64,000 bases of DNA, taken from NCBI GenBank assembly GCA_964016885.1, contig OZ024740.1:315828001-315892000 (forward strand), written 5' to 3'. Source of the stretch: Eledone cirrhosa (lineage: Eukaryota). A program made the position numbers and the translations under genes. The notes under the pieces are model-generated. The model was given only the letters and a program-made list of their open reading frames with translations, had not been told where the DNA came from and did not search any database. Below, piece by piece: positions 37,016-60,246 of this stretch. Within the stretch, counting starts at the first letter, position 1. The number at the start of each line of letters is the position of its first letter.

Positions 37016-37170
37016 TTCACTATTTAACGATCGTTTCTAGGGTATATATGTGTTATAATTGGTATGCATATTTAACAGATCTATGTACAAAATTATACAA
37101 AATTATACAAATTATCAAGATTAAATATACATACCTAACTCATATATACGCCGTCTTCAGAAATAATGAA
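37016..37170 (-). ncRNA. Type I hammerhead ribozyme with very long stem II
   Basis: Minus strand reads UUCAUUAUUU-CUGAAGA-[~116 nt hairpin]-GAA-ACGAUCGU-U-AAAUAGUGAA. Stem I is 10 bp and stem III is a perfect palindrome. The first stem II pair is a C-A mismatch. Confidence 0.75.
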
Positions 37171-37739
37171 GTATATTTATTGATAATAACAACAATTCAA
37201 AATATCAGTTCAAAATTGACCAATGAAAACATAAAGGGTTAAAAAGCAGTTTGGTGTGTGTATATACATGTAAAACCCTACACACATTTTACAATAATGT
37301 GTGTATAATTTGTATGTGCATACTAAAAAGATGGATGCAAATAAAAAATTTCAAGGTTAATATCTCTGTAAGCTTAATGCGCTGATAAGATACGCAATGA
37401 TACTTATGGAGTCAAGCATATAAATATATTTTTTTCATACTCACACATATCAGTATAATCACACATACATGTGCGTATATATATAAATATACACATAACC
37501 ACGAACACACAAACACACACACTCCCCCACTCACATTTATATATGTGGATATAAAATCATAAGCAAATAGAAATTAAGTCACTCACATAAACACACTGGT
37601 ACACACATTTCAAGATCAAGATACAGAAATTAGGTGGGAGGGGGGGGGGAGGGGTCAGTATTAGGTTGTCAGACCAGACAGCCTAATATAAATGTATCTA
37701 TAAATTATGAAAAATAAAAAAATAAAAACAATAAAATAT

Positions 37740-39160
37740 ATTACATATAATATAATGTACATACGCATACAGATATATATACACATACATACATGTACGC
37801 GCACATAGAGATATCTACACATACATACATACACACATATCTATACTGTCATACACACACATACATTTACACGAACATACACATACACATATAAAAAGAT
37901 AAAAATACGGACACACACACGCGCAACACATACACACATACACATATATATATATATATATATATATATATATATATATATATACATATATATACACACA
38001 CACATAGACTCATATATATATACATACACATACATATACTTATACATAAACATATATATCCCACACTCATACCACCATGAAAACACATACAAACATCCAG
38101 ATGTATATATATATATATATATATATATATATATATATATATCAACATACACACACGTACACATATATGTATATATACATACATATATACACACATACAC
38201 ATATATATATACACACACACATAAAATACAGACATGCACATATATATATATATATATATATATTTCATTACTCTTATATATACACATAGTATATATACAT
38301 ACACAACCTCACTTATACACATATACACATAAGTTATATTACAATAATAATAAAGAATAATATATATATATATATATATATATATATACATATATATACA
38401 CACATATACACATATACATACATACACATACATATACATACATACATACACATACATACATACACCTAAATATAAACATATATAAATACACACATACGAA
38501 TAAAGACATATATTCACACATAGACACCTATATACACATATATATATATATATATATATATATATATCTATATACACACACATACACATACATACACATA
38601 TATATATACATACACTTATACACACACGCACACACATACAGACACACATACACACTCACATATATATATATATATATATATATATGTGTATGTGAGTGTG
38701 CGCAAATACATACATATATATACACAACCACATACAAACACACACAAACACATACATATGCATACGTGCACACACACACACATATATCACATAGATACGA
38801 AGATAAACATATAAATAGAGAGACATACAAATATATACAGAACCCATATACACATACATACAAACACGCATATACATATATATACATATATACACACACA
38901 TATATTCCTATATACAAGCATACACATACACACACATATATACATATACATACACATATATATACCACACATTCACATACACGTACATATATAATACATA
39001 TATATACATATATATACATACATATGTATGTACAATCATATATACACACTCAATCTTACATTCATATTTACATGCTCATATATGTATTTTTATATTTAGA
39101 AATAAATACCAAAAAAACTATATAGACACCCATCTACACATATATTCATACATATACACT
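37740..39160. repeat. Compound (TA)/(CA)/(CATA) microsatellite field
   Basis: Low-complexity repeats; the ORFs called here are artefacts. Confidence 0.95.
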
Positions 39161-40411
39161 TACAAAAACAGATGATAATAGTATGGGGGAAAGGGGGGGG
39201 GTTTGGAGAAGGGGATCAAAGTAAATATATGTTTCAAGAAACCTATAATATTTTCCATATCTTAATTCAATGTATGTTCTTACATATTTTCAGTGCTAGG
39301 AAATACGAAATCTATGCATCACAAAATAAAAAAGTATACCATTAATCATATGTCAACTAAACCAAAGATAGTCAACATATTGATTTCCAAGGTGTAAATT
39401 AGTTAGGTTTATAATATTTGAAGCAGAATTATGAAGTCAAACAGTAGTAGATTATTAATTATATTATAACTAAATTAAAGTTAATAACGTTATGGTATCA
39501 ATATTAGGAGATGAATTTAGTAATAGGGAAAAGAAACCCAAATAAAAATAAAATAAAGTATTACATCGGTAGTAGCATATAAATTATATGTTAACTAAGT
39601 TAAAAATTATATATTTATTTCAATAGTATATGTTAATTAGTATATGTTAATTAGGTACACAATACATAAAGCAGATATTGTATTTCATCAATAGCATAAT
39701 ATAATTATAAGCAAATAAAAATCAAAATTAATACGCATACACATACATATACATACACATACACATACATATACATATACATACACATATATATATATAT
39801 ATATACATATATATACACATACATACATATATAGTCACATAAATATACATACAGATACACATACAATACACACATATACATATACATATAGATATACATA
39901 TCTTTTTCAAAAAATTTGCACAGAATATATTAACTAGGTATATATCCAAAAACACCTCCCATTCTATGATTACATGAAATTCTGCAATTCGTCTGTACAA
40001 GGATACTAATTTTAAGCAAATTAAAATTAAAATTAAAGTTTTAGGTTGATTAAAGCTAAAACCAAATAATAAATATATTTCCAAAATGTATATTAATTAG
40101 GTCAATAATACTAAAAATTCTTTCTCCGTCATAGGATACATGATATTATTTTGTTATATTTTATCTGTAAAAGAATTATAATAAAAAAAATTATAATAAA
40201 AGGTTAAACTAAATTAAAAAATTATAATAAAAGGTTAAAATAAGTTAAAATTAATCTATAAATTAAATTACTGAATATATATTAGTAATATTTAAAGGTT
40301 TTTCAAAATTAATGATTACATAATATTTTCTCATCTGTAATAAAATATTAATTAAATTAAATTTATAGGTTAACTAACATTTAAATTAAATTAAATTCTA
40401 GAATAATGTTA

Positions 40412-41450
40412 TTAATTAGGTTTATAATATTTAAATGTTTTTTTTAGTTTATGATTACACGATATAATTAATTCCTGTCTTTTATTTAATAAGATATCCC
40501 TAGACTTCATTATTTCAAATAGTTCTTGGGAACATAATCTACATTCCTTTCTATTATTTTGATAAGGGGTGGCTCTTTTGAGCACACTCCAGGTCAAATC
40601 ATATTTTATATTTTTATTTTTATAACTATTGATTTTTTCTGCTAGAGATGTTGTATTAGCCAGTGCGGCATTTTTAAAGCTATGTTTGTGGGTATTATAC
40701 CTTGTCTTAAAATTGTTAGAGGTAGCTCCTATATATGAGCAAATAGAATCTTTAGTTTTAACATTACATTTATAGACTATGTTGTTAACAAGACAATTCC
40801 CTTTTAATGGGCAGTTTGTTTTGTTTCTACAGTTACATCCTTTCGTTAATTCTGTATTTGAGGAGATATTATTGTTAATTTGATGTACTGGTGGTATACT
40901 TATAGTTTTCTTACATTTATATGCATTATATGCACTTATATTTTGTTTTATGTTATTTGTTGTAGAATATGAGAATTTAACTGTAGACCTATTTAAGATT
41001 TGATGGTATTTGTGGTTTGGCGGGAAGTTTTTCTCAAGGATATAAAAAAATTTTTTAGCAATATTATCCTTAACTTGTAAATTAAAAGGAGCATTATACC
41101 AAGTAACTCGTCTATTACGGTTTCTATGTTGTTTATTATTTTTATTATTTTTATATGTTGTATCATGATTTTTACTAGGAGGAATAATGTTAATGATCTC
41201 ACCACAACTATTTTTAGTTATATTTGTAGATTTAGGTGTTTTATCTTTTTTATTAGGAGTTTTATTATTAATATTTATTATAGTCTTATGATGAGTAGTT
41301 TTTTGAGGGTTACTATACTTTATATTAGAAGATTTAGTATTTTGGGGTATACTGTGGGTGGCATTTAGGTGTGTACTTTTCATTTGGTGTTTGTTGGTAA
41401 TATTATGCTGTATGTTTTCAGTATTTTTAGTAGAAGTTATATACTCTAAT
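40412..41450 (-). mobile_element. Penelope-like (Naiad-type) element, 5'-truncated ORF with linker and GIY-YIG endonuclease but no RT
   Basis: RRVTWYNAPF...FPPNHKYHQILNRSTVKFSYS, CNCRNKTNCPLKGNC, IVY, YIG, FKTRYNTH, CRLCSQE, LLNKRQE, CNH. The frame stays open upstream of the ATG at 41383 (RLEYITS...) up to a (TA)n tract. Confidence 0.88.
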
Positions 41451-58751: not shown

Positions 58752-58974
58752 ATTTACTTTTTAAAACTGTTAGCACGGAAGTAATTTGGAATTGAATTGC
58801 TTACAACATTCGTACATTCGTTTAATGGAATTTTGCAGAGATACATTTTCCATATTGTAGATCACGATTATGTTGATTGGAGAAAAAGAAAAAAAAAAAA
58901 AATATATATATATATATGTTATGGAATACTGTTAGCTTCTCGCTACAACAATTTCTATACTTTTTATATATATC

Positions 58975-59729
58975 ATCATCATCATCATCATCACCGTTTT
59001 ACGTCCGTTCTTCCACGCTAGCATGGGTTAGACGGGTTGTCCTGTTGTGGGCAGTGTCTGGTCGGCTGACCATGCCTTGCTCATACAGGAACTGATCTGG
59101 CTTGATTTCTACAGCTGGATGCCCTTCCTAACACCAACCTCATTTACAGTGAGTGCTGGGTGCTTTTTCGTGGCGCCTACACGTCCACTTTACAGTGTGG
59201 GCTGGGTGCTTTTTTGCCGTGGCACCTCCACGACCACCTTGCGGTGGGGGGTGTGGGGGCATATTGTTTATATGCTTCAGCATGTACCCATGGGAGGTCG
59301 GGTACCCTGTATTACTGCGTGACGCCAGAAGTCACGGTCGTGTGTCATTGACTTTGAGAGGTGTAGTTGGGTAAGGTCGGCTTTTATCACCTCATCCCAA
59401 GTCATCTTGGGTCTCCCCACTCCGCGGTTTCCATCAACTTCTAGTGCTCTGCACCTTTTTATGCAGCTGTCATCCTTCATACGCATCACATGTCCATACC
59501 AGCGTAACCGCCTCTCCTGCACGCAGCATTTGATTCCTCTTATGCTCAGTCTCTCTCTCAATTCCTTTATGCTTTGTCGTTCACGTATATTACTGTTACA
59601 CATCCATCGGAGCATGCAGGCTTCGTTTCTCTCTAATCTACGTAAGTCTTCCACCTTCAGCGCCCAGGTCTCACTACCATGCAACATCGCTGTTCGGATA
59701 CACGCATCATACAGTCTGCCTTTCATTCT
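58975..59729 (-). mobile_element. RTE LINE 3' fragment with (GAT)n tail
   Basis: KGRLYDACIRTAMLHGSETW...RRLRWYGHVMR...GRPKMTW, same family as 24255-26890. Confidence 0.88.
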
Positions 59730-59740
59730 TATATATATAT

Positions 59741-60246
59741 AGAAGTTCTATTTAAATTGTTGGGATACAACAAGCAAATATTTTTATAACTGATATAAAG
59801 CACTCAACAAATTATTGGAGTAAAAATACGATATATTAACAAATGGAAACTATATTTATAAAACCATATTTATTTCATTATACATATTTCAAGGACACCA
59901 AGTTAAATTATGGTGTGCTTTTATCAGATAAAATATAATATAGATCAGTTTCATAAATAAATATTGACATACCCTTAAAGAATGCGACCATTTCTGTTGG
60001 AAGCTCCCGGATTATAAATTTATTTATACTATTATGCAAATTAGTGTCGGATATTTTTAAATCACAGTAGATTTAAAATAAGCTTTGGTGTCCTTCAAAT
60101 ATGTATAATGAAATAAATATGGTTTTTATAAATATAGTTTCCATTTGTTAATATATTGTATTTTTACTCCAATAATTTGTTGAGTGCTTTATATCAGTTA
60201 TAAAAATATTTGCTTGTTGTATCCCAACAAATTAAATATAACTTCT
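59741..60246. mobile_element. ~0.5 kb palindromic non-coding element made of two inverted family-A Penelope terminal repeats
   Basis: Arms 59741-59901 and 60085-60246 are near-identical and homologous to about 43240-43390. (TA)n lies on both sides. Confidence 0.85.
59871..59935 (-). ncRNA. Hammerhead (family A) with G8A core substitution
   Basis: UAUUUUAU-CUGAUAA-AAG.ACACCA/UGGUGU.CUU-GAA-AUAUGUAU-A-AUGAAAUA. Confidence 0.72.

Follow-up and report, generated by a model that had tools for sequence, protein, structure and literature searches.

Hammerhead motifs of the locus

We analysed a 64,000-nucleotide window of the Eledone cirrhosa genome (assembly GCA_964016885.1, contig OZ024740.1, positions 315,828,001 to 315,892,000 of the forward strand), in which a structural scan identified seven type I hammerhead ribozyme folds, of which one has a defective core, and in addition a degenerate eighth copy. 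Judging from the sequences around them, these motifs mark the 3' ends of Penelope-like retrotransposons (Penelope-like elements, PLEs) of the Hydra clade. A relaxed scan of the window returned 8 matches, compared with 2 in the reversed window and 0 to 3 in block shuffles (10 runs). Rfam reported no hammerhead family among its 96 matches to the window at E <= 1; the only matches were to microRNAs and were driven by microsatellites.

Table 1. Hammerheads and PLE parts, with positions counted from the first letter of the window.
Feature	Position	Strand	C3	Stem III segment (A15.1-U16.1)	10.1-11.1	10.4-11.4	Position 17	Remarks
PLE copy, 5'-truncated	36965..41458	-						End of open reading frame (ORF) and microsatellite-rich 3' untranslated region (UTR); abuts (TA)n at 36933-36964
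PLE ORF, C-terminal 348 aa	40412..41458	-						Reverse transcriptase (RT) end, CxCx5C linker, GIY-YIG endonuclease without CCHH
Hammerhead	37016..37170	-	37160	ACGAUCGU	C.A	C.C	U (37026)	
Hammerhead	41504..41574	-	41566	AUGCGCAU	A-U	C.U	A (41512)	
Hammerhead	41772..41831	-	41824	ACCACUGGU	U-A		A (41779)	Terminal copy, two-hammerhead family
Hammerhead	42288..42353	-	42345	AUAUAUAU	A-U	C.C	A	Left arm of inverted pair
Hammerhead	43198..43263	+	43206	AUAUAUAU	A-U	C.C	A	Right arm of inverted pair; identical to the 42288..42353 copy
GIY-YIG endonuclease end	44215..44778	+						Hydra-type (CxCx5C, no CCHH, CxxC, CxH); two-hammerhead family
Hammerhead	45134..45190	+	45140 (region)	ACCUCUGGU			G	Internal copy, two-hammerhead family; core CUAAAGA (broken)
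Hammerhead	51107..51173	+	51115	AUAUGUAU	G.U	C.C	A (51165)	Solo 3' fragment
Hammerhead	59871..59935	-	59927	AUAUGUAU	A-U	C.C	A (59879)	Core CUGAUAA; solo 3' fragment

The core is intact in six of the eight copies; it is broken in the 45140 copy and in the 59927 copy, in the latter because G8 is lost. The copies listed in an earlier note on this DNA, made from its letters alone, are real folds in all seven cases, but the broken 59927 core is among them and the eighth copy, 45140(+), had been missed. The seven share a stem I of 7-10 contiguous, A/U-rich pairs and carry A17 six times and U17 once (37160 copy), which agrees with the AU-rich stem I and the UA or UU cleavage dinucleotide described in that note.

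The 37160 motif is the putative terminal ribozyme of a young Hydra-clade PLE. Its 116-nt stem II (37037-37153, minus strand) forms a rod with a predicted energy of -38.8 kcal/mol, holds a 10-nt tandem repeat and would be missed by the usual descriptors. The 41566 hammerhead lies in a short 3' fragment of a further PLE family, with (TA)n tracts on both sides. The two AUAUAUAU copies face outward within an insertion nested in (TA)n that spans about 42247-43393; its arms end 49 and 137 nt past the cut site, a one-sided tail typical of PLE insertions, and the solo copies of the window end 137-149 nt past theirs.

The carrier elements

The ORF at 40412-41458 represents the C-terminal part of an 830-aa RT-endonuclease (RT-EN) frame, intact versions of which occur elsewhere (all 116 scored matches are 99-100% identical). 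By eye, this frame displays DKT, RWR in place of RWK, a CxCx5C linker, and CxxC and CxH near the C-terminus. Both endonucleases of the window have the features of the Hydra clade, namely no CCHH, the CxCx5C motif, and CxxC and CxH around E and N; Pfam gave no match for the two fragments. In the listed copies the 37160-type hammerhead lies 3262-3285 nt past the ORF and directly before the next ORF in tandems, which is the pseudo-long terminal repeat (pLTR) type of placement, and the full-length tandem unit measures about 6.19 kb (three tandem or inverted arrays examined). In other loci, each of the five palindrome types seen in the window has a related endonuclease upstream of its hammerhead, at a distance of about 1.0-1.3 kb in the AUGCGCAU family, and (TA)n follows 38-149 nt past the cut site in all seven window copies. 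The stretches at 37200-40400 and 43400-44230, seemingly host microsatellite DNA, are element 3' UTR that is also present in other copies.

These elements resemble the Hydra-clade C-terminal EN+ PLEs described in Craig et al. 2021 (PMC8557442; including Hydra-1_oBim) in DKT, RW[K/R], CxCx5C, CxxC, CxH and the lack of CCHH. Passages of the same paper also describe (TA)n targets, inverted 5'-truncated arms and a type I hammerhead near the 3' end with a family-variable palindrome, mostly A or U at position 17 and mostly a non-G-C base of stem II. The published families, as presented there, are mostly shorter than 3 kb and have a stem II of 3-7 bp, whereas here units reach 6.19 kb and stem II 26-116 nt; the main lineage also differs from them in its 8-nt palindromes and in a C.C or C.U (C.Y) mismatch at 10.4-11.4, and one family here has two hammerheads. 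Our first guess, Naiad or Neptune/Nematis, was dropped because domain order and motifs match Hydra; an N-terminal endonuclease and the lack of a canonical hammerhead are expected in a Naiad PLE, and the endonuclease of the 830-aa frame is C-terminal. A non-LTR (long terminal repeat) retrozyme was also rejected, since no tandem unit of the window contains the motifs and they trace to coding PLEs.

Abundance in the genome

The genome searched amounts to 3.0 Gb. An unbiased sample of 100 stretches of 10 kb (1 Mb), taken at round coordinates of the larger contigs and scanned with a descriptor that demands neither a palindrome nor a 10.1-11.1 pair, contained 51 motifs versus 3 in the reversed control, which extrapolates to about 1.4 x 10^5 copies across the genome. 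The pattern of the AU-type class matched 90,963 times in the genome versus 25 in the reversed control, and the AC-N5-GU pattern 17,038 times versus 315. Position 17 is A in 43 and U in 8 of the unbiased motifs, and C in none. The earlier note had proposed an AU-adapted lineage; this is consistent with the AU-type counts, where A17 occurs in 90,963 copies and C, G or U in 1,484, but G/C-rich stems and palindromes coexist in the same genome, as seen in the unbiased sample. We also observed four very small hammerheads (L060:5989, L117:7252, L106:1108 and L127:922) with a 6-nt palindrome and a stem II of 4-5 bp, three of which carry U.U at 10.1-11.1 and resemble published cnidarian Hydra-clade motifs. 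Runs on contigs (n=4) showed family variants (U17/A17 and a change at 11.1), a kind of data that cannot reveal RNA ends.

Conservation of the stem III palindrome

Stem III is fully self-complementary in 40 of the 51 unbiased motifs and one pair off in 8 more, with a descriptor that did not demand a palindrome; a palindromic stem III is a mark of the minimal PLE hammerhead. The self-complementary stem III of differing sequence described in the earlier note holds for the segments of the seven window copies and for those 40 motifs, and is imperfect in the ACCUCUGGU and ACCUUUGGU families. Within an 8-nt palindrome the 4-5 and 3-6 pairs cannot form in a single hairpin, because positions 4 and 5 are adjacent and 3-6 would close a 2-nt loop. 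The central 4-5 pair is nonetheless formed in 33 of the 35 unbiased 8-nt segments. Covariation, a check that the earlier note had proposed, was assessed by our own shuffles over cluster representatives and speaks for pairing: positions 4-5 are paired in 25 of 27 (U-A, U.G, C-G, A-U; shuffled mean 18.3, p = 0.0002) and 3-6 in 24 of 27 (shuffled mean 20.4), with p-values that are optimistic and overstate independence, because the clusters are related and include pattern-selected loci.

The genome counts of two sister palindromes point in the same direction. AUAUGUAU, centred on U.G, and its reverse complement AUACAUAU, centred on C.A, are each one DNA transition from AUAUAUAU, and mutation of double-stranded DNA would yield both equally often; the former is found 31,267 times and the latter 207 times. 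In a dimer, AUAUGUAU gives tandem G.U pairs and AUACAUAU C.A mismatches. Of the 32 clusters, 5 contain the G.U form; the C.A form, among the 100 matches listed, is spread over different families. Predicted energies range from +0.4 to +4.7 kcal/mol for the monomer stem III hairpins and from -2.2 to -10.5 for the homoduplexes, and predicted 15.1-16.1 pairing in monomers is <=0.01 in six of the seven window copies and 0.245 in the seventh. These counts support dimer folding, as pairing appears to be kept where monomers cannot pair. The dimer action suggested in the earlier note is supported by this genomic pairing evidence, and it is already the published model for PLE hammerheads (PMC6765202, and passages of PMC4209133).

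Sharing of palindromes between families

The distribution of palindromes was analysed in 104 distinct motifs, grouped into 32 clusters at 25% divergence. AUAUAUAU was found in 6 clusters, AUAUGUAU in 5, ACUAGU in 3, and AUGCGCAU and ACGAUCGU in 1 each; the largest cluster carries two palindromes (17 AUAUAUAU copies and 6 AUAUGUAU copies), and AUAUAUAU is common to families whose stem I is unrelated. The cross-family dimer of the 43206 and 51115 copies has a predicted energy of -18.6 kcal/mol versus -14.4 and -15.2 for the homodimers (summed helix energies), while ACGAUCGU, ACCNCUGGU and AU-type motifs are predicted to be mutually exclusive both in stem III and in stem I. These predictions suggest that a few mutually incompatible classes survive, defined by stem I as much as by stem III, and that they do not form a family code. 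Such classes can arise without selection, because drift through wobble pairs explains them.

Base of stem II

The canonical G10.1-C11.1 pair is absent from all seven window copies. The earlier note had stated that it never occurs, which is correct for the window but not for the genome, where it is present in 6,643 of 90,963 copies (7.3%) and in 5 of the 51 unbiased ones; the latter show nine different 10.1-11.1 combinations. Overlooked in that note was the C.Y mismatch at 10.4-11.4, found in six of the seven window copies and in 82,968 of 90,963 copies genome-wide, which amounts to 91% of the main lineage. Covariation is seen at the second and third pairs of stem II, formed in 26 and 25 of the 27 cluster representatives; at the fourth pair, 19 of them have C.C and 5 have C.U. 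The mismatch may be a docking site for stem I or for a protein. No pair-4 mismatch was seen in the hammerhead table of the Hydra families (PMC8557442 File S2). A bulged base after A9, which would restore G10.1-C11.1, was considered and rejected, since it suits only C-ending subfamilies and the in-register reading covaries better.

A family with two hammerheads

The 41824 and 45140 copies belong to a family with an internal and a terminal hammerhead. In another locus (L188) the order is endonuclease, internal hammerhead 403 nt on and terminal hammerhead 1,458 nt further (72-81% alike). The window element of this family is split, its 3' part being inverted relative to the endonuclease part at about 44220. 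A broken hAT/ZBED-type transposase remnant (DUF4371, E 7.7e-7, under the curated cut-off) lies at 45371-47300, directly past the internal hammerhead.

A search with the internal-type pattern, leaving position 17 free, gave 510 matches, and G17 is present in 100 of 100 among the matches listed; the core, which lies outside the search pattern, is intact in 29 of the 30 loci of the subgroup examined. A related older pattern gave 141 matches; among 30 loci examined, 23 carry G17 (19 with intact cores) and 7 carry A17, the latter lacking another copy within 1.5 kb. An A17 copy follows downstream, at a distance of at most 1.5 kb, in 14 of the 30 internal-type loci and in 11 of the 23 older-pattern G17 loci. 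Of the remaining loci, 20 were extended to 4 kb (8 were left unextended), and 13 of these have such a copy. In a tree, the G17 copies, L266 excepted, cluster with A17 copies located 214-506 nt past the endonuclease, which are read as putative single-hammerhead ancestors. G17 was also considered as a recurrent trait, and this was rejected: the AU lineage has 1,484 copies with a base other than A at position 17, and the 100 of them listed come from scattered families. Nor did an independent second origin of G17 emerge, the 786 G/C17 copies of the ACC class being mostly one lineage among the 100 matches listed.

Variants common to at least 3 of the 44 G17 copies affect N7, the eighth pair of stem II, the fourth palindrome position, a single 3' position of stem I and, downstream, 4 of 16 columns; the 13 columns of the core and of the 5' side of stem I hold none, a deficit that is only borderline (hand count, Fisher p about 0.04-0.07). 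The terminal core is likewise conserved (25 of 27), and a pure helper model needs no such conservation. The predicted internal-terminal dimer and terminal homodimer are equally stable (-22.1 versus -21.8). As reported in parts of PMC3884650, G17 strongly impairs minimal hammerheads through a proposed G17-C3 pair, whereas hammerheads with tertiary contacts are not fully impaired. In the simplest view, G17 silenced a site whose cleavage would truncate the RNA, and the remainder of the internal copy has not yet decayed. It is also possible, if rather doubtful, that the internal duplicate, with its G17 and its core kept, is a built-in partner that dimerises in cis with the terminal copy, so that a single transcript is processed at one end. 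The internal copy, 230-400 nt past the endonuclease, would then cut with its core the terminal site 0.6-3.7 kb downstream, and G17 would pair with the terminal C3 and lock the second junction uncut. A limited literature search found no report of an internal G17 copy combined with a terminal hammerhead.

Proposed mechanism and alternative explanations

Taken together, sequence comparison and modelling indicate that the terminal hammerheads of several Hydra-clade PLE families probably cleave as strand-swapped dimers with a shared stem III and no family-specific code. Each catalytic core in the dimer would cut the partner's site, and both stems I would be swapped too; partner choice would rest on stem I and stem III jointly, because each core also takes the partner's stem I strand. 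Pairing may occur in trans or between two copies, about 6.2 kb apart for the young family, on one tandem transcript, probably with the help of the element's protein; cleavage would trim the element RNA out of tandem or read-through transcripts at a point 40-150 nt short of the inserted 3' end. The palindromes would drift via G.U intermediates into few incompatible classes common to many families, and the 10.1-11.1 pair would be loosely constrained, with 10.2-11.2, 10.3-11.3 and C.Y at 10.4-11.4 retained.

Besides the optimistic p-values, several observations weigh against this mechanism. In the abundant 9-nt families, which carry ACCUCUGGU or ACCUUUGGU, positions 4 and 6 are paired in just 8 of 15 clusters (5 of 15 have U.U there), and these families could form 3 bp with a triloop as monomers; the 31,267 AUAUGUAU copies stem from few amplification bursts. 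Most genomic copies are truncated single or back-to-back ends with no nearby same-strand partner: among the 100 AU-type matches listed, 38 neighbour pairs are no more than 7 kb apart, and in 26 of these the two copies lie on opposite strands and point away from each other; 24 of the 100 matches have another copy, whatever its family, on the same strand within 7 kb, and 34 have no neighbour. According to passages of PMC7229834, invertebrate retrozyme hammerheads with a 2-bp stem III and a tetraloop cleave well as monomers. In an anole PLE, as reported in parts of PMC11167929, insertion proceeds in vitro with no need for hammerhead cleavage, and no RNA ends were observed at the site.

Some of these points would suit monomers whose stem III of 2-3 bp is clamped by protein or by a stem I/II contact at the C.Y mismatch, the palindrome being secondary. 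The conservation of C.Y between covarying pairs does suggest a contact site, published retrozyme hammerheads cleave as monomers although their helix III has 2 bp (in passages of PMC7229834), and the scarcity of same-strand partners and the U.U of the 9-nt families fit as well; this explanation leaves the 4-5 and 3-6 pairing of 8-nt palindromes unaccounted for and is at odds with the predicted 15.1-16.1 pairing given above, and we regard it as unlikely. Still less probable is that the fold is kept for a non-catalytic role, such as dimerisation of the template RNA or binding of the reverse transcriptase, with negligible cleavage. The 10.1-11.1 pair affects the rate of hammerhead cleavage, and loss of G10.1-C11.1 in most copies, together with weak A/U stems, would slow it; cleavage was also dispensable in the in vitro PLE work mentioned before. 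In terminal copies, however, G is avoided at position 17, and the internal copy, in which cleavage would shorten the RNA, does carry it; this pattern fits a cleaved site.

The earlier note had suggested a dimerisation code, in which each family has its own palindrome and only its own transcripts pair and cut. Several classes are indeed incompatible by prediction (ACGAUCGU, ACCNNNGGU, AU-rich and ACUAGU), AUGCGCAU and ACGAUCGU are each confined to a single cluster, and AUGCGCAU is predicted to favour itself (-23.5) over AU-class partners (-10.5 to -13.2). The two commonest palindromes, however, span 6 and 5 clusters and share one, families with unrelated stem I have AUAUAUAU in common, cross-family dimers within the AU class are predicted to match or exceed homodimers, and wobble-pair drift yields incompatibility without any selection for it. 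The rule that only like palindromes pair is not supported, and a family-specific code is improbable.

Relation to published hammerheads

In the published table of the Hydra clade (PMC8557442 File S2; 25 families, counted by eye with one duplicate row dropped), all families have a self-complementary stem III of varying sequence, 21 of 25 have A or U at position 17, and 18 of 25 are without G next to A9 and C next to G12, many of them showing U.U. The palindrome, the non-G-C 10.1-11.1 pair and the UA/UU site are already on record for this clade. The unusual variant announced in the earlier note thus shares its traits with described families, and the surprise is moderate; a modest novelty lies in the long stems, in the mismatch at 10.4-11.4 and in the internal copy with G17. 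In the passages of PMC8557442 and PMC4209133 no comment on the loss of G10.1-C11.1 was found, and Fig. S2 of PMC4209133 includes a motif from Hydra magnipapillata whose stem II has U.U at its base and whose cleavage site is UA.

The minimal PLE hammerheads of Cervera and de la Pena 2014 (PMC4209133) likewise have, in the passages concerned, palindromic 15.2-16.2 and loop 3 segments, a dimer model, U-rich or AU-rich flanks, close opposite-strand pairs and mostly solitary copies; their cleavage is weak and requires either a dimer or an extended helix III. Their G10.1-C11.1 pair is highly conserved and a bulged base precedes stem II, whereas here G-C accounts for 7% and a bulge is unnecessary. 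The PLE variants of Lunse, Weinberg and Breaker, as cited in PMC6765202 and PMC6466107, also combine a short palindromic stem III, dimer cleavage and association with PLEs. According to parts of PMC7229834, the axolotl HHR_Amex1/2 motifs of non-LTR retrozymes are similarly abundant (about 126,000 copies in one genome), have a weak helix III and cleave better as dimers, and Amex2 retains cleavage with a U.U mismatch at the base of helix II; the retrozymes described there consist of short, non-coding repeats in tandem and show contacts between loop 1 and loop 2, whereas the window motifs are part of coding PLEs and mostly occur dispersed. For one PLE hammerhead, cleavage requires the element protein (passages of PMC11167929).

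Other features of the window

Two near-identical CUGAAGA...GAA motifs, at 4692-4717(+) and 6443-6418(-), continue with GAAC, not GAAA, and are outside the type I descriptor; these opposite-strand motifs fall within ORFs 4329-4904 and 5817-6455. A stop-free frame of 453 aa with WD40 repeats (8061-9422, plus strand) has a THOC3-like propeller as its best match and is possibly an intronless gene or a retrocopy. We also detected a fragmented element of the long interspersed nuclear element (LINE) type with RVT_1 and PHD matches (24585-26493, minus strand) and a 4-kb (TA)n-rich array (29766-33728) that is the source of long stop-free frames. By eye, inverted repeats at 47430-47545 and about 50150-50270 surround nested inverted repeats (48600-50140), probably a two-armed insertion.

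Implications

Rfam and standard descriptors overlook about 10^5 motifs of this kind. The retention of dimer-only pairing in amplified lineages provides population-scale evidence from one genome. If the internal G17 copy does act as a built-in partner, it would be a natural asymmetric double hammerhead, in which a single non-tandem transcript processes exactly one end. The genome offers natural series with shared and incompatible palindromes, a loose 10.1-11.1 pair, a fixed C.Y mismatch and an internal G17 copy, and these open to in vitro tests the questions of dimer action by PLE hammerheads in vivo and of their importance for transposition.

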